Shown here in pieces: positions 2,138 through 62,126 of a stretch of 64,000 nt of DNA. Each line of letters starts with the position of its first letter. Position 1 is the first letter of the stretch. Both the position numbers and the translations under genes were made by a program. Source of the DNA: a virus. A model generated the notes under the pieces. The model was not told the DNA's origin and did no database searches. It saw nothing but the letters and a program-made list of their open reading frames with translations. The DNA is taken from IMG/VR virus record IMGVR_UViG_3300029989_000006; one strand, written 5' to 3'.

Positions 2138-4009
2138 TTAATTAAGTACTTGTGCATTACCATTTACTGATTGTACTGCAGGTGTTGTATTTAAATTGTA
2201 TTGAACATCACTATTTTTAGTAGCTTTAACTGTTGGACCTCTTCCATTAAAACTATCTACAATAACATTAGAGGCAGGTCTATAAGGAATTGCAATCATC
2301 CCTTTATAATAATTACCAAATCAACCTTCATTTGGTTTTGTAGATTTAATTTTAGTTCCAATCTTTTCTGATCAAGTTTTATCTAGATCTGGCATAATTG
2401 CTTTCTCTTCATCTGAAGTTAACTTAGTTACTCAAGGATTATCTTTTCCTAAAGCAGTTCCATCATTTGTATAACCATAAAATACTAAAAATGGTTTAAT
2501 ATGACTATTATCCATAATTACTTTAGTATTTATTCCATTTTTAGTTTCTTCACCAATTTTGATATCAAAATTATGATCTTTAAAAAATCTAGTTGCTTCA
2601 CTAGTAGATCATTTATCCTTATTTGATTCATATGTAGCATAAATCTCTTTAAAGATTTTAAATGCATTATAATCAGGTCTTCCATTATCATCAACTGGCA
2701 TATAAACCTTTGCTGCATCTTTTCCATCATAAACCACATTTTTAAAATCATATGATTCTAATGATTTATTTCCAAAAGAAGCATTATCAAAATCTAAAAA
2801 TTGATTATAACCAATATTTGCTATATTTTGAACTGATGTCATAGGAATTGTTTCATCATTGGGTGTCATTAATGGAAATACTCCACCAATTGCTCCTTTA
2901 AGTAAAACTCCAAGTTTTGCATCATTAAAAGCAAATGTTAAATTCTTACTCATTAATTTATCATTATGAGACATCTGGAAATTATTCATTGGCTTATCAC
3001 TTTGACCTGAAGAACCATCACCAATTTTTACAGGTTTAACTTTTTCAGAATGTGAATCATTAGCACTATTACTAATCATATTCATTAACATAGATCCTGG
3101 TGTATCACCACTTAAAGCAGCTATTACGGATAGTTTATTTTGTGCCTTTTCACCCATAGCTTCCCAAATATATTTTAATCCCTTTTCAACTCTTCCTCTT
3201 TGTGAACTGTTATTCTGTTCAACGGATACATAATCACTATTTACATCTGTAAGTGAATTTAATTTTTGTAATTGTTCAAATTCTTCTTTTGTTGGAGTTG
3301 GACCTTTAATGTTTATTCTAGAAGCATTCATCTGATGTTGAATCTCATTCCATTGTGCTTTACTATAAACTTTATCAGATATTTCTGTATCAGTTCCAAA
3401 ATCCTTTACTAATTTAAGAACATCATCCTTAATTGTTTTTAAACTAACTGCATCATTTGCAACATTAAAAATATCATTTCTTCCAACTAAATTTGGATTT
3501 AATCTTCTTTCGTTTAATAAATCCTGAACTGTTAATAATTGTTGTGTATTTTTATTTTTTTGATAATCAGCTAAGGTAACTCCTTTAACTGTCCCCACTT
3601 TATCCTTAACAAATAATTCTCCTCTACTACCAACTGCAACTTCACTTAATGTACCTTGTTTTGAGGCTTCATTTACTGATTGTGTTCATGCATCTTTATT
3701 TTCTCTTAATGCATTTAAAGTTCCAATTAATTTTATAGAACTTAATCTATTTTTAGGTTGTAAATAAGGATTTGTTTCAGAACCTTCTAACTTTGCAAGT
3801 TCAGATGTAAATTGATTTACTTCATTCGTTAAACCAACATCTTTTTTTATCATTTCTTTATAAAGAGCATCATCTAAAATAGATGATCCAGAATTATCTG
3901 AATCATCTTTTTTAGAAGTTGTTGGCATTTGAGGAGTTGGACTTGAAGGTATATAAGGAGTAAAAGCTACAAATCCACCTCCTTGTTGCAGTTTTGGTAT
4001 AAATTTCAT
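2138..4009 (-). CDS. Virion cargo protein, 623 aa (code 4)
   Basis: Pieces 3686..4009 and 2609..3598 are in frame. Reading TGA as W continues to TAA at 2138. N-terminus MKFIPKLQQGGG. Confidence 0.75.
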
Positions 4010-7000
4010 TATTTAAATACTTTTATTAGTGATTTTTGTAAAAGTTCATTATCTAAAAAAATAGATTTATAAAACATTTCCAATTCTTTTTGACTTTTTT
4101 CATGTTCATTTCTTATTTTTGCCAATTCTATTCTATTATCTTGTGACATACTTCCTCCTTTTTTATAATAAGGAGAATAAGATTGTACCACAGCCTGTTG
4201 TTTTAAAATAGGTGAAGTATATTGTTCCATTAATGTATTTCCATATTTTATTTTGTCTAATAAAGCTTTAGCATAAGCAGATTTTTCAAAAGTCATATTA
4301 GGATCAACATTTTTTGAACTTTTCATATCTTCTGTAAATTTATCACGATATAATTGTTCAATCTCAGGAGAAGATAATTTTGCTAAATATTTCTGCATAC
4401 TAATAAGATTTGGATCATTAATTTTCTGTCGTAAATCAAATGTAGCTTTTTTCTGTTGCCACATTGGTCAAGTCATTGCTTCTGATTTAAGTAAAGTATT
4501 TCTTGCAGTTGTGTCAGCCATAGTTTTATTTGCCATGACTAAAGACATATTTTTTTCAGCATTAGATGATGCAGATTTATTAGCATTTATAATTTGAAGA
4601 TTTCTCTGTCCAATTTGAGTATTCATAGATAATTCCTGTCCTTTTATAGCATCATTTCTTTGAATATCTGCTTGTTGTGCTCTTGATGTTATATCTGCAT
4701 TTTTAGCATTAGCTTGTAATCTTGCACTAATTCCTTTTCCTCAATCATTAGTATTTTCTGCAATGTTTTTACCAATATTATTATTAATTCTATTTTGTTG
4801 TTCTGCTATAATAGTATTTGGTGTACTAGTACGCATATAAACTAATGGACTTGTTTGTAATATTGGAAATTTAGATGCAGCAGTTAATTGATTCTTTAAA
4901 ATGTTTTTATTACCAACCATTGTATTTACAAATTGTGCTAAATTCACAAATCGTGTTGGATCAATGTATGGTTTTGATGTATATGGAATTTCTGCAGGAG
5001 GATTAAGTCCATCTGTATCTAATGTTGTAGTATTAGGTGCTGGTGTTGTTGGTGCAGATGTGTTAATATTAGCAACTTTAGGAGTCATAGGACTTGAAAT
5101 TAATCCAGATGAAACAGTAGGTTTCCCTATTAAATTTGAAACAAAATTATGTACTGTTCCAATTTTTTTATCAACCAATAAACGTTGAACATCAGAAGCA
5201 TTTTTTACTTGATAAGTTCCCTTATTAGCTAAAATTTGTTTATTTAAATCTGATCCATATTTATTAAATCAATTATCATCAATAGATTTTTGATAATCTA
5301 ACCAAGGTTTATTATATTCCTGAGTTTTTGAATCAAACCTAAAATCATTTCCAAATTGTTCCATAGTTCTGAATGGAATTTTTCCTGCATTTTGCATTTT
5401 TAATATTCCTCCTTCAGATTTTTTCTCTACTTTCTTTTTAGAAGTAACTTTATTAACTTTTTCCACTTTTTCTTTAGAAGTTTTTGGTTTAGTAGTTGTT
5501 TTAACAACTTCTTTTTCTTCAGTTGGATTTACAACTACTTTAGTTTTTTCTATTTCAGGAGTTTTTACTGGAAGCTTTTCTTTTAAACTTTGTAGTTTTT
5601 CCACAGCAGATTTTTCATCTGTCACAACTCCTTCACCTAAGTGTTTTCTAGCTAATTTATAATCATTAAAATCTGTGCCTCTATCTCCAGTAACTAATTT
5701 TGGTTCAGTTCCAAGAGTTCATTTTCCAGTAGATTGTCCATAACTATGAGTTAAATTCTTTGTATCAATTTGTGTTAACTCTTCTGGAGTTAAATCCCTT
5801 CCATGAGTTTCTTTATAAGCAGAACTTATTTTATTTTTTAAATTATTTAAACTTGCTTCAGCTTGTTCTTTAGTTGGCTCAGTACCTTTACCTATTAATG
5901 ATTTTCCTCTTTCAATTAAAGATTTAGATGGTTCAGCATCAGGTTTAATAATTCCTTTTACTTGTCCTGTATCAATAAGTTTTCCTTCAGAATCCAAAAG
6001 ATTAAAGGCAGTTTTATCATTTGTAACACTTGCTCTTTCAGCTTGGTTAGTAATAGCTTTCATTCTTCCAGCATTTGCTTTTAAAACATTTGCAAAAGAT
6101 ATACCCATTACTACTTTTTTCCAATCCTCAGGATTAGTATTTTTAACACCATCCTCTTTTCAATCTTTATAAATGTTAACTCCTCCAGAAATTGCCTGTT
6201 GTCCAGCAAATGCACCTAATCCATATTTTCCGGCTGTTGCAACTTTTGCAAAATTAGTTGTTGTAGCTTTTTTAGCTAAGTTTCCTAAAGTTTGACTGCC
6301 TATGATTTTAGTAGTTGCTCCTTTTAATGTCTCAGCTGCTGCAATATGAGAATCAAGTGCTTGTGAAGCTAATTTCATAGTTTCTTCAATTGGTTTTCCT
6401 TCACCAACTAATTTAGTAGCTAATTCAATTGCTTCAGCAGTAGGTTTTTCGGTTTTTAATAATGCAGATGCTCCTTTAGCTTCTTCTAAGGTATTAAAAC
6501 CTGCTTTTGTTAAAGTACCAACGGCCTCTAATTCTTTAGTTCCTTCTATACCTTTACTAATTGCTTCAGCTGTTTTTGTAAGTTTAGCAATCTTAGTTGC
6601 ATCCATTCCTACTTGTCCAGCTTTTATTAAGGATTTAACTCCACCTAATCCGAAGAATGATAATGCCACAAAAGCAGCATCTAGACCTAAATCTAATTTA
6701 TGATTTAATAAACCATTTGCTCCTTCTTCATGTAAAATCTTACCAATATCTGCTCCCATGACAACTCCTGCTCCAATAGAACCTGTTGGTCCTGGAACAA
6801 ATGATGCACCTAATCCTGCAATACCTGCAACATCATAAGCGGTACTTGTAGTATCTTGTCCTGCAAATGTTCTTGCATCTGTTTTATTTACAACTGAAGA
6901 TGGTTCTCCTTTAAGTATTTCTGCTAAAGTATTTTCAGGATTTTCCTGAGATGGTACTACATTCTCTCCTACTACTGGAAGTACTGTTGCTATTGGATGT

Positions 7001-52553: not shown

Positions 52554-53101
52554 TACTTTCTATACTTAGCTCTTGCAGAGTCCTTATTCTTAGATTTAAA
52601 TGTATCTAATTGAGAATCACAGTTTGGGCAGATTAATCTTAAATTAGTTCTCTCATTATTGTCTGCATTTCCATCAATATGATCTAAAATAAAAACTAAA
52701 TTTTCACCATTCCACATATCCTCCATCTTACATATAGAACATTTATGATTCTGTTCTTCTAAAAAATGTTTTTTATAATGCTGCATATTTTTTTGACCAT
52801 ATGCAATAGAATTATCTAACTGATATTCTTGATAATGTTTTTTACTTTGATATTCTCCTCTACAACTTATAGAACAACACTCTGTTCTACCTCCTCTACC
52901 ATCTTTTGCTGGTTTAAATTCTTTGCCACAATTTGGGCATATTTCGTTAAGAATTTTGTTTTTTCTATTAGGTACATCAATACCTAATTTTAATGCCCAT
53001 TGTTTAATTGTTTTATCCGAAACCCCAAACATTTTTCCTAATGTAGTATAAGGTAACTTATCTACTATTAATAATTGTTCTAATTCCTCTTTTGTTGTCA
53101 T
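52553..53101 (-). CDS. HNH endonuclease, 182 aa
   Basis: CSIC...LDHIDGNADNNERTNLRLICPNCD; N-terminal HTH-like segment and CPNC zinc motif. Confidence 0.88.
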   Translation of the reverse strand: MTTKEELEQLLIVDKLPYTTLGKMFGVSDKTIKQWALKLGIDVPNRKNKILNEICPNCGKEFKPAKDGRGGRTECCSISCRGEYQSKKHYQEYQLDNSIAYGQKNMQHYKKHFLEEQNHKCSICKMEDMWNGENLVFILDHIDGNADNNERTNLRLICPNCDSQLDTFKSKNKDSARAKYRK

Positions 53102-53108
53102 TTATCAT

Positions 53109-53140
53109 TTTACATTTACACTTACACTTACACTTACATT
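53109..53140 (-). repeat. Hexamer tandem repeat (TGTAAG)3(TGTAAA)2 in the tRNA 3' trailer
   Basis: Read directly on + as tttacatttacacttacacttacacttacatt. Confidence 0.8.
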
Positions 53141-53141
53141 G

Positions 53142-53214
53142 CGCCTTCACTTCGATTCGAACGAAGATCTAATAATTTTGAAGATTATTGTTTTAGCCGT
53201 TAAACTACGAAGAC
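53142..53214 (-). tRNA. Opal suppressor tRNA, anticodon UCA (presumed Trp)
   Basis: GTCTTCG TA GTTT-AACGGCTA-AAAC A ATAAT-CTTCAAA-ATTAT TAGAT CTTCG-TTCGAAT-CGAAG TGAAGGC G. Full cloverleaf, discriminator G, CCA not encoded. Confidence 0.92.
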
Positions 53215-55976: not shown

Positions 55977-56136
55977 AAGAAATTTTTTCATATTTTACCT
56001 ATTTTATAAAAAGTTTTAAATCACTTCCCACAACTTCCCCACATTCCATTTTCCCACATTATCAATAGTCAATTTATAGAATTTCCCAATCTCAACATTA
56101 TCATATTTCCTCATCTCCAAAAATTTTACTATTCCA

Positions 56137-56195
56137 TTTCAAAAAGTACCCGACACTTTTTCAAAATGTACCCCATAGGATTTCAAAAAGTACCC
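56137..56195 (+). repeat. Three iteron-like 15-mers TTTCAAAA(A/T)GTACCC with 22-bp period
   Basis: Copies start at 56137, 56159 and 56181. Confidence 0.85.
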
Positions 56196-56343
56196 TCTAA
56201 CTATATATACTACATACTGAAAAAACTAAACTTAAAGGGGATTTCCTTTCCCACTTTTCCCCAAAAAATTTTTTTCTAAAAATTTTAAAGATTCGTGATT
56301 CGCGAATTGAGAATTTTAAGAAAATATGAAATTCTAATTTATC

Positions 56344-57003
56344 TTATTCTTTAAATTTCCAAATAAATCCATAGATAGTTTTTCTACTACTACCACAACA
56401 TTCTCCAATTTTATTAGACTTAGTTTTTTGAACTAATCCTTCAATAGATCTTGCAGCATCTGCAATTGAATTAAACTCCTCAATTAAATTATCCTCCAAA
56501 TCATATTTCTGAACCTTCTTCTTTTTATCATTCTGTGATTCTGACAACTTCTTTTTAGTTTCTTCTGATTTAACATATCCAGTCCTTCCGAGAGATAAAT
56601 TATCTAATTGTTCTTGAGTTTTAGGAATAGTTTTTAAATGTTCCTTCATCTCTTCTGTATGTTTATATCCAATATTACCTTCTCCTCCCTTATTTAGATT
56701 ATACCCAAATTCAGACATATCTGTCTTATATAATTTTATATATCTTTTTTCTAACTTATTCAACACCCTCTTAAGTTTTTCTTTATCTGGTGTTGGTTTA
56801 AATTTAATTATAACCTCATATCTAAAATTCTCAAATCCATATTTTCTAATAGCATTTCCAAAATACGTCTGACTTTTTATATCCTCATTTTTATGATGAC
56901 TTTTTCTACTACTCTCATTAATCGTCTGTCCAACATACCTCTTTCCACTTGGGGAAATATATACATAAATTAATCCAATTCTAAACTCCTTTACACTAAC
57001 CAT
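56344..57003 (-). CDS. GIY-YIG homing endonuclease with NUMOD-type domains, 219 aa
   Basis: GLIY...KRYVGQT...GYNL..GG; C-terminal KYDLEDNLIEEFNSIADA...YGFIWKF. Confidence 0.88.
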   Translation of the reverse strand: MVSVKEFRIGLIYVYISPSGKRYVGQTINESSRKSHHKNEDIKSQTYFGNAIRKYGFENFRYEVIIKFKPTPDKEKLKRVLNKLEKRYIKLYKTDMSEFGYNLNKGGEGNIGYKHTEEMKEHLKTIPKTQEQLDNLSLGRTGYVKSEETKKKLSESQNDKKKKVQKYDLEDNLIEEFNSIADAARSIEGLVQKTKSNKIGECCGSSRKTIYGFIWKFKE

Positions 57004-57052
57004 AATTTCTAATTTTTAAATTTTTACTATATTTTATCTATTTTATCTGATA

Positions 57053-57060
57053 CAAATTTA
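57053..57060 (-). promoter_or_regulatory. -7 box candidate (TAAATTTG)
   Basis: Matches TAnnTTTG, 50 nt upstream of the GIY-YIG gene. Confidence 0.4.
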
Positions 57061-57294
57061 CAAAATAAATTTTATTAAAATTCTATAATACTATCCCATG
57101 TTAAATTAAAGACAAGAGACCATTCTAATTCCATTATTTTCATATATTATGAACAAGAATCTTAAAAAAATTTTTTTATTTATATTTCAGAAGCCCAGGG
57201 CCTGTCTCCCAACTTACCCCCAGCCTTAAAGGGCGAGAAACCCTAACAAAAAACAATACACACACATATTTTAAAAACAATTAAAAAAATCACA

Positions 57295-57804
57295 ATGGAA
57301 AAGTTAAACATTGAACAATTTGAAGCAGAATTAAAAACTGCCGGTATGGATGAAGCCAAAATTTCCGCAGACATTCAAGCAAATTATTTACCAGAAAGTG
57401 GTACGTTTGAATCCTACGAAATTGTCAACGCGAATCAACCGACTGTTCACGTCCGTATGCTCACAACTAACGGCGGTTCAATTAGTCTTAATGGTTTGCG
57501 TGGTGTTGCTCACTTTGGCGACAAAGAGAGTATCACATTAGGCAAAATTGAGAAGGCTGGCTCAACTCTGAATGGCAAATTTGCGATGAAAAGTGTGACT
57601 AACATTAACCCACAACTTGGGGGAAAAATTGCAAAAGTCGTTTCCAATTTACTTGGACGTGATTTCAAAGCAGTTGCAACTCCGGGTTATGTTCTCCGCA
57701 CAAAGTTAGGTGCAGACCTGAAACCTGTTGGTTACGATACCGAAGCGAAGGCCAAAGAAGCCATCGTATCCAAAAATTTCTACAAAGTTGAAATTATCTA
57801 TTAA
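57295..57804 (+). CDS. First early-region protein, 169 aa
   Basis: Intact ORF with GC-richer codons, an A/C-rich leader and its own terminator. Confidence 0.8.
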   Translation: MEKLNIEQFEAELKTAGMDEAKISADIQANYLPESGTFESYEIVNANQPTVHVRMLTTNGGSISLNGLRGVAHFGDKESITLGKIEKAGSTLNGKFAMKSVTNINPQLGGKIAKVVSNLLGRDFKAVATPGYVLRTKLGADLKPVGYDTEAKAKEAIVSKNFYKVEIIY

Positions 57805-57832
57805 GGTAATCCAAATTTGTAAATTAAAAAAT

Positions 57833-57859
57833 AAGGGAGAGCAATCTCCTTTGTTTTTT
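57833..57859 (+). terminator. Intrinsic terminator
   Basis: AAGGGAGA-GCAA-TCTCCTTT followed by GTTTTTT. Confidence 0.75.
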
Positions 57860-57899
57860 AAAAAGTTTCTATTATTAAGTATAATCACTAAATTTCATT

Positions 57900-58181
57900 A
57901 TGGAATATGCAATTATTGGCATCCCTGAAAAAAACCAAAATTGGGATGAGTCTAAGATTAAAACTATTCGTGGAAAATTTGAAAACAATGAATTACTTGA
58001 TTTTGAAACGAATAAAATTATGTCCATAACTACATACGGTATAATGTATGATCAGATTAATGGACGTAAAGGTTGGTTTAATATCGCACCATGGATTGGT
58101 GATGATATGGTAATCTTCCAAGCTATCGTGGTTGATGAGTTTCCAAAGCATGTTTGGAATAAATTAGATCATATTAGATAG
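57900..58181 (+). CDS. Hypothetical protein, 93 aa
   Basis: Intact ORF; its 4 W are all TGG. Confidence 0.65.
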   Translation: MEYAIIGIPEKNQNWDESKIKTIRGKFENNELLDFETNKIMSITTYGIMYDQINGRKGWFNIAPWIGDDMVIFQAIVVDEFPKHVWNKLDHIR

Positions 58182-58185
58182 CAAC

Positions 58186-58598
58186 TGCACAGGAGGTATA
58201 ACGCATTTCTATTCATTAGTAATAGGAAGCACCTTAGAAGTGCATTTTTAAAAAATTTATCGAAGGCAGACATGTAACGGGATGAACTGCCTTCTCCACA
58301 CTATCCAAAAATTACCTGTTAGACAAGCATCTAAATACTAAAAAATCTAATAGTATATAGTATTGAATAAAATGGTGTAGTTTTTGGAATGGATTGTATT
58401 GTGGATAATATTGAGGATGAAAGCCTGCGAGGTAAAGGATGGAAGTCTCGGGTTAGGGCGTTTAAGCATGAATATGCTCCATCACGTGGATGACCACATG
58501 AAGTAAAGATAAGTGTTTGAGACAGAGGGTTATTGAAGTCTCGTTTTTGGCCAGTAAATCCTACTCTTTCCGTAAGTTTCGGAATTGGGGAGAGTAGG
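58186..58598 (+). ncRNA. Structured non-coding block 1 (tandem helical domains)
   Basis: TGCAC/GTGCA, GAAGGCAG/CTGCCTTC, TCCACA/TGTGGA and CCTACTCTTTCC/GGGAGAGTAGG stems; no ORF. Confidence 0.5.
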
Positions 58599-58630
58599 TA
58601 TTTTATGAAAAAACTAAAAATCTAAGATGT

Positions 58631-58882
58631 ATGGATAAAATAGTTGTTGGACCAGTAAAATGTTCCGATGAAAATTATACGGTAAAAGCTGTTGTATCAG
58701 GTGATAGCTTAGAGATTGTAACCGGTAGTAGCCTGAGGATAACTTCTCAGAGACCATATAAGGAAGAGATTGTTCCGTTGTCTATTAAGAATCTCAAGAG
58801 GTTGTTGAAAACAATTGGATCGAGTGAGGATAGACGAATGGCCCAGGGAAAGATTGAAGGGTTTTTGGGGTATTCAATTTAA
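58631..58882 (+). CDS. Hypothetical protein, 83 aa
   Basis: Intact ORF with an A-rich leader. Confidence 0.6.
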   Translation: MDKIVVGPVKCSDENYTVKAVVSGDSLEIVTGSSLRITSQRPYKEEIVPLSIKNLKRLLKTIGSSEDRRMAQGKIEGFLGYSI

Positions 58883-58885
58883 TAG

Positions 58886-59143
58886 ATGTTAGTTAGGAAG
58901 AGAGATTTTAAGATTATGGGGATAACAGAAAATGGTAATGCGTTTCTGGAGGCTTTCCCGAGTTTGCCAGATGTTGATCAAGTGTTGATCAGTAGAGGGG
59001 CAATCAATGTGCTGTTTTTATTGGGTGATACGATAACAAATGATACGAAAGTAAAGTTGAAGTATCGGGAGTTTATAAGGGATAATCGAAAGTTTATTTA
59101 TATAAATTCTATAGAACCAATGTTGAAAATAAAATCAGTCTGA
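58886..59143 (+). CDS. Hypothetical protein, 85 aa (TGA stop; 120 aa if read through)
   Basis: Intact ORF ending in TGA and followed by a hairpin. Confidence 0.55.
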   Translation: MLVRKRDFKIMGITENGNAFLEAFPSLPDVDQVLISRGAINVLFLLGDTITNDTKVKLKYREFIRDNRKFIYINSIEPMLKIKSV

Positions 59144-59176
59144 AAGATTGATTTGGGGAGAGTGAGTTCTCCTCAA

Positions 59177-59259
59177 GGATGAATGTTACAGCCCTCAGGA
59201 TTTGAGATAATCCATGGCTCATCCGTAACGCGTGATTTAATTACGTAACTGATGTAACG
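59177..59259 (+). ncRNA. Candidate HDV-like ribozyme with an expanded L3
   Basis: P1 GGATGA/TCATCC, P2 TGTTACA/TGTAACG, P3 GCC/GGC, P4 GCGTGAT/ATTACGT and J4/2 CTGA (CNRA), in nested double-pseudoknot order. Confidence 0.45.
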
Positions 59260-60030
59260 AGGCAGGTTTCTTGTCTTTAGGATAAATCGTGAATTCATAA
59301 GCGATGAAAGTGATGGTGTAGTTAAAAGCGAAACTATTGCGATGATGAAAGTCATTCTGTATGAAAACCAATTTAATATCTATAGTATGGTGTAGTGGGA
59401 ACTCGGAAGAGTGAAGCGATAGTATTATAGACTTGGGTTTGACTAACTTGAGTTGAGTGGTAACACAATAAGAATTAAATTGATTCGTTTCTCAAAATCA
59501 TTGTCGTGATGAGGGAGATGTTTATTGTTAGATTGTATGCCCTATTTTATCATTCCCAAATGATGAAGCTCCTGGGGAGGAGAAGTAGAAATAGTAGGGC
59601 AGTGTACAGTTGATGAAGTGAGTATGTTTGACAGCAGAAAACAGGGAGGCGTTGTATCTAAACCATTCAAAAGATGGCATGATGACAAACGCAATCACGT
59701 CTACCAAAGAAGTCCTTTTAAAAAATTTAAAATTCGTTAGAAACGAAATTCAAAAATTAATAAAAGTAAAATCCAAAAAGTATTGCGTCTGATGTATGAA
59801 AATACAGTTATCCATTTGTGAAATGATGGGATGTGGACCTCGGAAGGGAAAGCATTATTTGAAATGAGTAATCAATTAGTAGATGCAGGGATGTATCGTG
59901 TTCTTCCAAGAAGCTAAGGATGAAAGGAGTAGGATATATAGTATGTCAGAGGAGTTGCGGGAACTTAAAAATCCGTCTGTATGTTGTCTACCTATAGAAG
60001 TATAGGTGTGTTGTAATCCGAAAGGAGTAT
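59260..60030 (+). ncRNA. Structured non-coding block 2
   Basis: TCTATAGTAT/GTATTATAGA, ACTTGGGTT/AACTTGAGT, TGCCCTATT/AGTAGGGCA and TTGCGTCT/AGATGCAG stems with G-U pairs; no + strand ORF of 60 aa or more. Confidence 0.45.
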
Positions 60031-60166
60031 AAATGGCAATAGAAAACGTCAGGACTCAGCGTTTTAAAAAATACCACGGTCGTATTGGTTCTCTTCTAAT
60101 AACAGAGGATCTATCCAGTAAATTGCTGGCGTTTGTCAGAGTTCAGATAACTGATAAAAAAATATT

Positions 60167-60640
60167 AATGGAGGGTAATAGCCATGTACTATTATTGCAG
60201 TGCTTACGTAATTGGGATATGGCCCGTGTTTACTCAGGCTATACTGCAGAAAACTCCATTTAAAAATTAACATGTCCTGCAACTCAAGAAAAAGTCAAGA
60301 GGTATTGGCGACAGCACGGACGTAAAATCGTTGAGGATGGTTTAAAATACTGTCGTAGCAGCTGTACTTGAGGCATGTTTGAATATATTATTATTAGTAA
60401 ACGGTAATATGTTCTAATCCCATAAGTGGACACAGTGGATATAATAGTCCACTAAAATATTAGGATGATTTGCAAAACATCTCGTACTTGATCCAGCAAT
60501 CCGGAAATTCGGACCGAGCTAGAGTGAGACTGCAAAACGATAACAGAAGAAATAATAAACTCTTTTGTAAATCATCTACAATACAATAGAAAAGACATGA
60601 TATTTGTCGTATTCCTGGGCATGAAGACAAACTGCTTTTT
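60167..60640 (+). ncRNA. Structured non-coding block 3
   Basis: AATGGAG/CTCCATT, AACATGTC/GGCATGTT, GCGACAG/CTGTCGT, GAATATATTATT/GGTAATATGTTC and GGATGATTTGCAAAA/TTTTGTAAATCATCT stems. Confidence 0.5.
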
Positions 60641-60678
60641 AGTGCTAAATCTAATTATTTACATAAAAACCTAAACCA

Positions 60679-60876
60679 ATGATTGAGTATTTTCAAATTG
60701 AAATGATTGATTATAAACTCGACAAAATGGTTGAGTTTACAACACGTGGTAAATTAACAAGAGCCATAGTTAATGGCAAATCAACTGCTTGTATTACTAA
60801 TGAGTATGATGTGCCTATTATTATAGCAGCACCATCAGTGCTCATTCGTGATTCTACTGGTAAATTGTTGTATTAA
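60679..60876 (+). CDS. Hypothetical protein, 65 aa
   Basis: Intact ORF with an A-rich leader. Confidence 0.55.
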   Translation: MIEYFQIEMIDYKLDKMVEFTTRGKLTRAIVNGKSTACITNEYDVPIIIAAPSVLIRDSTGKLLY

Positions 60877-60882
60877 AATATT

Positions 60883-61537
60883 AGCAGAGATAAAGACAGG
60901 TGCATGAAATAGTACAGTAGAACTGGCTATCAGAGTAATGCATCACTCTGCTTTAAAATATTCATCCCTAGAAGAACAGGATGATACCGAATCGCGACGG
61001 TATAGTCAGATACGATTATTGTTTACGAATGCATGCGTAACAATGAGGATATTTGATGGCTTCAACAAGAGATATTTGTTAAGTAAATAAGCGAAGTAAT
61101 GATATCTCCATTATTAGCAAACTATGAAACCTGGTATAACACTAAAAGATTTGGCCAGCTATATTCCTCAGGATATTCCTGTGGATTGAGGTATGCCAGT
61201 CTAGTTCCCAAGTGTATGGAAAGTCTTTTGGAGGGAATTTATGTAATTACAAATTAGGTCTGGTGTTGTATCATCGGCCACCCCAAACTCAGTCCTAGTG
61301 CTTGTATAAGCAATGGACAGTCTGCCGCTACCTGAAATACTGGTTGCCTTAAATGGCTCTTCGCGGCTCAAAATGTTGTTTGACGAACTTCATACCTTAT
61401 AGGTTAAATGTCAACTGTAAACTCTCCCAAGATCTCAGACGTCGAACTACTAGTTTAGTTACCGAATGTTGAGGGAGAGTTTATTTAAAAATATACACTG
61501 ACTTTTTGTCAGTAGGGGAATGTGAGTTGATTCTCTA
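60883..61537 (+). ncRNA. Structured non-coding block 4
   Basis: AGCAGAG/CTCTGCT, TCATCC/GGATGA, TACCG/CGGTA, GCCGC/GCGGC, AAACTCTCC/GGAGAGTTT and ACTGAC/GTCAGT stems. Confidence 0.5.
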
Positions 61538-61772
61538 TTTCTCCACAAGGGTTTGGTTTCTAACTAAAGAAAGAAAAGATTATCAAGTTAAACCTATAAA
61601 GGTTAAAAAAGAAGAAACATCCAAAGACATTTGGCAAAAACAAAAAAAGAAATAATCTTGTAATATCAGGATTATTTCTTATACTCGTAAAAGTTCCGAG
61701 TATAAAAAGAAGAATAGGAATGCTAGTATATATGTTGAAATACATTTAAAGCTCAAACTCAAACATCTAAAA

Positions 61773-62126
61773 ATGAATAAATTATTTGTTATATTATTAA
61801 TCTTACTAGCTATATCATGTAGAAGTAAGCCAGATCCAGAGATATCTTATATAGATATGGATCTTAGAATTGTATTAATCAATTCACAATCCATTTTGTC
61901 TCAGAATAAATTCCATAAGCCTCAGTTATGTAATATTGTATTATTTGAGACACTAACAACTGATCCTAAGTTATATTTTGAATATAATAATTGTGATATA
62001 GATTTTCGGTCTATATTAATTAATACTAAATGGTTATACAATCATTGCCCAGGAGATACTGTTCATTTTAACTATATTAAGAAATCAAGATTCTTTACAA
62101 TTAAACCTGAATTAATTCCTAAATAA
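61773..62126 (+). CDS. Lipoprotein, 117 aa
   Basis: MNKLFVILLILLAISC signal peptide with a lipobox. Confidence 0.7.
   Translation: MNKLFVILLILLAISCRSKPDPEISYIDMDLRIVLINSQSILSQNKFHKPQLCNIVLFETLTTDPKLYFEYNNCDIDFRSILINTKWLYNHCPGDTVHFNYIKKSRFFTIKPELIPK

Follow-up and report, generated by a model that had tools for sequence, protein, structure and literature searches.

HDV-like ribozymes (HDV, hepatitis delta virus) cut at their own 5′ end. The HDV, CPEB3 and Ackermannviridae ribozymes have in common a nested double pseudoknot and a catalytic C in the J4/2 junction, and the theta ribozymes show the same order of elements in phages of the Caudoviricetes (PMC10879173; Kienbeck et al., 2024). GOLLD RNAs are likewise found in phages, often near tRNA islands; they have a conserved 3′ and a variable 5′ region, and cryo-electron microscopy has shown a 14-mer cage (PMC12286853). 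Here we describe a locus at which a module like the former directly precedes an RNA like the latter. It lies within a 64,000-nt window, i.e. the whole stretch of DNA that was analysed, which corresponds to bases 6868–70867 of the 172,188-bp IMG/VR phage record IMGVR_UViG_3300029989_000006 (rated complete by CheckV). We propose, with a probability of roughly 0.6, that positions 59177–59259 of the window encode a variant HDV-like ribozyme that would cut the early transcript 5′ of G59177 and stand at the head of the GOLLD-like RNA. Its parts are the following.

59177–59259, + strand: HDV-like ribozyme candidate, 83 nt, with the proposed cut between A59176 and G59177.
59177–59182 and 59219–59224, + strand: P1, GGAUGA/UCAUCC, six Watson–Crick pairs, the first of them G-C.
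59183, + strand: J1/2, a single A (GA in the diverged relative L003).
59184–59190 and 59253–59259, + strand: P2, the pseudoknot, UGUUACA/UGUAACG, seven pairs including one G-U.
59191–59193 and 59216–59218, + strand: P3, GCC/GGC, 3 bp.
59194–59215, + strand: L3, 22 nt, made up of CUCA, a hairpin (59198–59202/59209–59213, GGAUU/AAUCC, loop UGAGAU) and AU; C59194 maps to position 20, U59195-C59196 to the P1.1 strand and A59214 to position 25, with A59197 and U59215 completing the core.
59225–59226, + strand: J1/4 bases available for P1.1, G59225 with C59196 and U59226 opposite U59195.
59230–59246, + strand: P4 hairpin, 7 bp (59230–59236/59240–59246), two of them G-U, loop UUA.
59247–59252, + strand: J4/2, AACUGA, with the putative catalytic C59249 four bases before the 3′ strand of P2.

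Segmented, the element reads GGAUGA / A / UGUUACA / GCC / C / UC / A-hairpin-AU / GGC / UCAUCC / GU / AAC-P4-AA / CUGA / UGUAACG. The canonical 5′-to-3′ order P1, P2, P3, P4 of the nested double pseudoknot is present, and the descriptor given below matches L003 as well as the window. A preliminary description of this DNA had placed P1 to P4, J4/2, G59225 and C59249 at these same positions and had called L3 atypical for its CUCA, internal hairpin and AU; all of these parts were recovered.

Evidence for a structured RNA came from comparison with L003, a 1.8-kb JGI contig and the only diverged relative with the full element, which aligns with 57713–59260 at 85% identity. Inside 59177–59259, 11 bases are substituted in L003 and 1 nt is inserted in J1/2, and all 28 pairs are kept in both sequences, with none broken. 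Three helices carry a compensatory double change: G59181-C59220 in P1 and G59191-C59218 in P3 are A-U in L003 (the latter turning GCC/GGC into ACC/GGU), and G59232-C59244 in P4 is U-A. Three more changes are one-sided and keep a standard pair (59190, 59209 and 59246), P4 G59230-U59246 becoming G-C and the change at 59209 in the L3-hairpin stem giving U-G. The remaining two fall at unpaired positions, 59206 in the loop of the L3 hairpin and 59229. The L3 core (CUCA and AU) and J4/2 (AACUGA) are invariant. When 11 random substitutions were placed by Monte Carlo simulation, all 28 pairs survived with p = 0.0038, and survived together with at least three double changes with p = 3.8e-5. RNAalifold, given the window and L003, found P1, P3, the L3 hairpin and P4 unaided.

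The strand and the borders of this RNA can also be read from the comparison. Three G-U pairs in the window and four in L003 would turn into C-A mismatches if read from the − strand, and the RNA is therefore that of the + strand. Divergence within the element is 13%, vs 15% in the flanking genes; because the element diverges like its neighbours, the constraint is on structure and is not simple conservation. L003 homology runs up to 59260, a single base beyond the 3′ end of P2, and X12, a low-depth contig of another peat run, has only 59170–59260 in common with the window and different sequence on both sides, so that the conserved, moved unit has the borders of the ribozyme. Judged from these sequences, it is close to certain that a conserved structured + strand RNA under selection lies at 59177–59259.

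Chance expectation was gauged with a descriptor comprising P1 of 6–7 bp starting with G, J1/2 of 0–2 nt, P2 of 6–8 bp, P3 of three Watson–Crick pairs, L3 of 5–25 nt with C near its start, G after P1, a P4 hairpin, and CNRA directly before the 3′ strand of P2. A search of this kind, allowing for an L3 insert, had been suggested in the preliminary description; it returned this site alone, whether in the window or across all 172 kb of the genome, and no match when A, G or U was put in place of the catalytic C. In 100 dinucleotide-shuffled windows, searched on both strands, the descriptor gave 0.02 matches per window. A looser version without P4 gave 0.03 per shuffled window and, in real unrelated phage DNA, one match in ∼600 kb and none in 124 kb. 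HDV-like descriptors are prone to high false-positive rates (PMC10879173), the minimum free energy (MFE) z-score of the element is weak, and a 60-aa open reading frame (ORF) on the minus strand (59173–59355) overlaps it, all of which would suit a stretch with no RNA function at all, be it non-coding DNA matched by chance, a C-terminal extension or an ORF on the minus strand. Since the 11 substitutions include three compensatory double changes and break no pair, we consider this extremely unlikely; two 1-nt indels rule out a coding constraint on the + strand, and of the minus-strand ORF the first 31 codons are missing from L003, whose homology does not go beyond 59260.

Searches for further copies were negative. 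Blastn of 56000–62000 against a phage collection gave no match, and exact and degenerate patterns of the element had 0 matches in viral contigs. A 15-mer hit 70 loci, and a metagenome pattern hit 0 and then three loci; all were judged to be chance by the covariance model R1, on which these loci reached at most 23 bits, vs 114 for the element itself. The element is absent from the weak relative L002, and in the relatives L085–L094, which were found via the Rep-like and 270-aa neighbours, 57253–61682 gives way to other DNA, with no match to R1 or the descriptor. Neither ARAGORN nor Rfam detected a tRNA near 59177, and at none of the 26 tRNAs of the genome did the descriptor detect an adjoining canonical theta ribozyme.

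The phage reads TGA as sense in its late genes. Its long minus-strand late genes are open only under this assumption, ORF coverage rising from 69% to 93% under code 4, and it encodes a suppressor tRNA with anticodon UCA (53141–53214, − strand), the sole tRNA within the window and ∼6 kb from the element. In the preliminary description, the ribozyme had accordingly been cast as a code sensor, which would cleave early, while ribosomes stop at UGA 59141, and be unfolded late, when the suppressor tRNA permits readthrough to UAA 59246. The stops at TGA 59141, at the in-frame TGA 59180 and at TAA 59246 were confirmed; under code 4 the upstream frame passes P1–P3 to 59246 in the window and, in L003, runs through three TGAs to a TAA in J1/4. 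The 34-codon extension is moreover the longest among the 23 + strand ORFs that end in TGA without being recoded genes, most of which extend by 0–9 codons and the next by 17–19. However, in the window as in L003, TAA and TAG are missing across P1–P3 from two frames out of three, and an open frame is thus only to be expected. The frame in which the upstream gene runs into the element is not the same in L003 as in the window, on account of the two 1-nt indels, and the readthrough peptides are unrelated; the substitutions obey RNA pairing, not codons. X12 has a different sequence upstream of 59170, and we saw no sign of late translation of the upstream early gene, whose late ribosomes would in any case meet an RNA already cut, because HDV-like ribozymes fold and cut during transcription. 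TGA is also an ordinary stop for 24 of the 115 + strand ORFs of at least 80 aa (genome-wide, code 11), mostly with a TAA or TAG backup within 0–9 codons; the + strand ORF at 119445–119951, which continues for 161 codons past its TGA, is probably a recoded gene. What stands of the earlier interpretation is the HDV-like double pseudoknot on the + strand, borne out by the compensatory changes and the theta-like parts; a switch blocked by UGA readthrough is left without support, and we regard it as very improbable.

In its parts the element follows the theta ribozymes, with which it was compared using the segmented sequences in the supplement of PMC10879173 (Kienbeck et al., 2024). Besides the order of elements, a 6-bp P1 starting with GG, a J1/2 of 1–2 nt and a 7-bp P2 are alike. 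The P3 forms of the window (GCC/GGC) and of L003 (ACC/GGU) are both in the published list, and J4/2 CUGA, with its C four bases before the 3′ strand of P2, is among the published variants, as is a G-C first pair. The setting is comparable as well, in that the element is borne by a stop-codon-recoded phage with a crAss-like terminase and occupies a non-coding stretch in the same sense as the neighbouring genes. Unlike in theta ribozymes, there is no tRNA 3′ end within 5 nt of the cleavage site, the nearest tRNA in the window being the one ∼6 kb away on the other strand, as the preliminary description had indicated in noting that the element does not adjoin a tRNA. It has a 7-bp P4, whereas the minimal theta form has a short L4 and no P4; it comes from peat, not gut, and from a phage with TGA recoding, whereas TAG recoding dominates among theta hosts. 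The greatest departure is in L3, which has 22 nt instead of 7 and reads C-UC-A-hairpin-AU where theta has U-NN-NCGY, with C at position 20 (not U), A at position 25 (not G) and U-U as the second P1.1 pair. Compared with the HDV, CPEB3 and Ackermannviridae ribozymes, P1 opens with G-C, not G-U, and there is a hairpin insert in J1.1/3. A P1.1 of one Watson–Crick pair plus U:U has been reported in a fast-cleaving Ackermannviridae HDV ribozyme (PMC13635239), and the P1.1 bases here, C59196-G59225 and U59195 opposite U59226, show no variation between the window and L003.

A number of points nonetheless weigh against a ribozyme at this site, and L3 supplies the first of them. The U20-G25 reverse wobble, set in an L3 of 7–8 nt, is a family signature, described as perfectly conserved in natural variants (PMC3386971); both bases are absent from the element, which has C59194 and A59214 at the mapped positions. 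Of the double mutants of this wobble tested in that study, C/A alone is active, and it can form an isosteric pair, yet in the HDV context the replacement is far slower than wild type (PMC3386971), and a G25A single mutant of another HDV ribozyme is nearly inactive. The assignment to positions 20–26 follows the segmented theta sequences, and by our own mapping a 16-nt hairpin replaces position 24. No natural HDV-like ribozyme is known to us that has a hairpin inside its L3, and we found no report in the literature of one inserted there. The HDV-like families of Rfam gave no match to the element even at E 10, and the descriptor was fitted after the candidate had been seen, so that its match rates flatter the candidate. 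P1, P3, the L3 hairpin and P4 emerge from MFE folding, though with a z-score of only −1.3. Only two full sequences of the element exist, no further homologue having been found, and the covariation rests on these two. Finally P2, the defining pseudoknot, shows no double compensatory change, and its sole change, A59190 to G in L003, pairs with U59253 yet also with the alternative U59219. Two GUAAC copies (59225–59229 and 59245–59249) could compete for the UGUUAC strand of P2; each of them is mutated in L003, the P2 copy being unchanged, and these mutations, the end of L003 homology at 59260 and the limits of the X12 match appear to favour P2.

The main rival explanation builds on the same points. 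It holds that the element is a conserved structured RNA without self-cleavage, a decayed HDV-like fold that might serve as a structured or protective 5′ leader, bind a protein or be the target of an RNase where mRNA and GOLLD meet. Covariation proves helices, not catalysis, and the missing U20/G25 signature, the large L3 insert and the lack of an Rfam HDV-like match would all agree with such an RNA. On the other hand, the full HDV-like topology is kept, with the 7-bp P2, the C four bases before its 3′ strand, the capacity for P1.1, and P3 and J4/2 sequences like those of theta; no change has occurred in the L3 core or J4/2 although the helices have drifted; and C/A is the one isosteric replacement known to keep activity. 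The exact C and A at mapped positions 20 and 25 fit a coordinated replacement. We consider a non-cleaving RNA possible, although rather unlikely, and prefer the variant ribozyme. Two alternative pairings were rejected: an outer helix in the MFE fold (UCCUC/GAGG, 59170–59174 with 59260–59263), since L003 has GAAA there, and a reading of GGAUU/AAUCC as P3 with UGAGAU as L3, since the UGAGAU loop varies whereas the CUCA/AU internal loop is invariant.

The preliminary description omitted the main context of the element, a GOLLD-like RNA that starts right after it. This RNA and the features that frame the locus are as follows.

58886–59143, + strand: small early ORF upstream of the element, 85 aa, no family, with its TGA stop at 59141.
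59155–59174, + strand: G+C-rich 7-bp hairpin read from the sequence, GGGGAGA/UCUCCUC, loop GUGAGU, its end lying 2 nt short of the proposed cut.
59261–60062, + strand: GOLLD-like giant non-coding RNA, 802 nt (3′ domain 59644–60062; presumed variable 5′ domain 59261–59643).
60033–60263, + strand: downstream small ORF, 76 aa, with an AAGGAG ribosome-binding site and its first 16 codons within the GOLLD block.

The Rfam model RF02032 (GOLLD) matched 59644–60062 with 60.3 bits (E 5e-15), all of its positions (1–416 of 416) being aligned, and the alignment takes in the UUCAAAAGA-loop hairpin and the long-range pseudoknot. The gathering score of this model is 150, and a genome-wide search with it reported nothing; because the score lies far below 150 and that search did not report the block, we call the RNA, by its sequence, a divergent, sub-threshold GOLLD-like RNA that the standard threshold misses. 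The surrounding block (59261–60080, 820 nt) is ORF-poor, has no long ORF and gives an MFE z of −2.5. In size (∼800 nt), scarcity of ORFs, phage origin and a position some kb from a tRNA island it resembles the described GOLLD RNAs (RF02032; Weinberg et al., 2009); the likeness rests on the model of the 3′ domain, the 5′ domain being left out of the comparison. GOLLD env-38 lies downstream of tRNA-Met, whereas the block here is headed by a module like a self-cleaving ribozyme. In viral contigs, a GOLLD consensus pattern had no match.

In L003, in which no GOLLD was found, 142 unrelated nt stand in place of the block, and the X12 contig has 12 nt there; in these alignments the block behaves as one insertion/deletion unit. 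L003 lacks GOLLD yet has the element, and the ribozyme-like module is therefore part of the backbone and GOLLD a cassette set exactly at its 3′ edge. The counterpart of ORF 60033–60263 in L003 is a short version that begins at the homology border. The hairpin upstream of the proposed cut is kept in L003, where G59156 is A and a G-U pair becomes A-U. No + strand terminator was called by the scan at this hairpin, and no U-run follows it.

We infer cleavage, and its purpose, as follows. Most likely, the 83-nt + strand RNA would fold as a nested double pseudoknot and cleave itself between A59176 and G59177 while the early transcript is being made. The upstream product would be the mRNA of the small gene, ending 2 nt past the hairpin at 59155–59174 with a 2′,3′-cyclic phosphate; at a site with no visible terminator, hairpin and cyclic phosphate together could plausibly protect the 3′ end. 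The downstream product would be an RNA with a 5′-OH, beginning with the compact double pseudoknot and continuing into the GOLLD-like RNA, or, in L003 and X12, which have no GOLLD, into the small gene at 60033–60263. Ribozyme processing is plausible in this phage lineage because a distant relative, L089, has twister-like ribozymes among its early-region tRNAs. A more elaborate proposal combines a re-engineered L3 (C-A for the metal-binding U-G wobble, with a hairpin at position 24) with a portable module that frees the GOLLD cage RNA from the mRNA and whose folding is gated by UGA readthrough, coupling GOLLD release to the code switch; taken as a whole, we give it very little credence.

If the element cleaves, it would be a natural HDV-like ribozyme that dispenses with the 'invariant' U20-G25 and tolerates a hairpin in L3, and hence a natural test of the metal-binding role of this pair. 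Current descriptors and covariance models exclude such forms, and the family may, if this is true, be under-counted. GOLLD RNAs build RNA-only cages, and the making of their ends has not been described. A module exactly at the 5′ border of GOLLD, together with relatives that have the module but no GOLLD, would, given cleavage, point to ends defined by a ribozyme and to a cassette-like exchange of giant RNAs.

The phage has a G+C content of 29% and is present in many peat metagenome runs; no RNA run was found to contain the locus. Its terminase is distantly crAss-like, with best matches of 41–45% to unannotated human fecal 'Bacteriophage sp.' records and ∼29–30% to named crAss-like phages; many Bacteroides and Flavobacterium phages are among the matches. 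The 26 tRNAs of the genome lie mostly in an island that begins ∼6.5 kb downstream of the element. The element itself is found on the + strand in a series of small ORFs without family; a Rep-like gene and the gene of a GIY-YIG homing endonuclease lie upstream of it. The ORF at 58886–59143 has a single diverged homologue (P0002, 87% identity), encoded on L003, in sets of 5.8 billion and 1.84 billion proteins, and searches with the proteins of both upstream ORFs and of the downstream ORF returned only themselves and the L003 lineage. In the relatives L085 and L086, ∼1–2 kb of unrelated DNA replaces 57253–61682, i.e. the small early ORFs, the element and GOLLD, between a flanking Rep-like gene (72% aa identity) and a homing endonuclease that they have in common with the phage; by this comparison, 57253–61682 is a hypervariable early-gene region.

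Some further observations were made in the neighbourhood. The GIY-YIG/NUMOD homing endonuclease gene (56344–57003, − strand) is skipped in one contig of run X7 (joint 56342 to 57270; window 56343–57269), which looks like the kind of presence/absence polymorphism that mobile homing endonuclease genes typically show. A G+C-rich island at 57162–57242, in an AT-rich intergenic stretch, matches 16.5- and 26-kb contigs of other organisms from the same peat runs with ∼9 differences and five gaps. No tRNA was called in the island; its flanking sequence GTGTTCGAATCCC, a loose end, looks like a tRNA T-arm, and the island could be a small RNA or the remnant of an integration site. The suppressor tRNA(UCA) is directly followed by tandem GTAAGT/GTAAAT hexamers (53100–53140, − strand), with no ribozyme or obvious terminator there. 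In L089, a 152-kb distant relative whose Rep-like protein is 39% identical, the − strand has two twister-P1 matches, at 3327–3390 and 4424–4487 (58 and 50 bits, E 1e-10 and 5e-8, sub-threshold yet significant), each located ∼100–135 nt downstream of an early-region tRNA.
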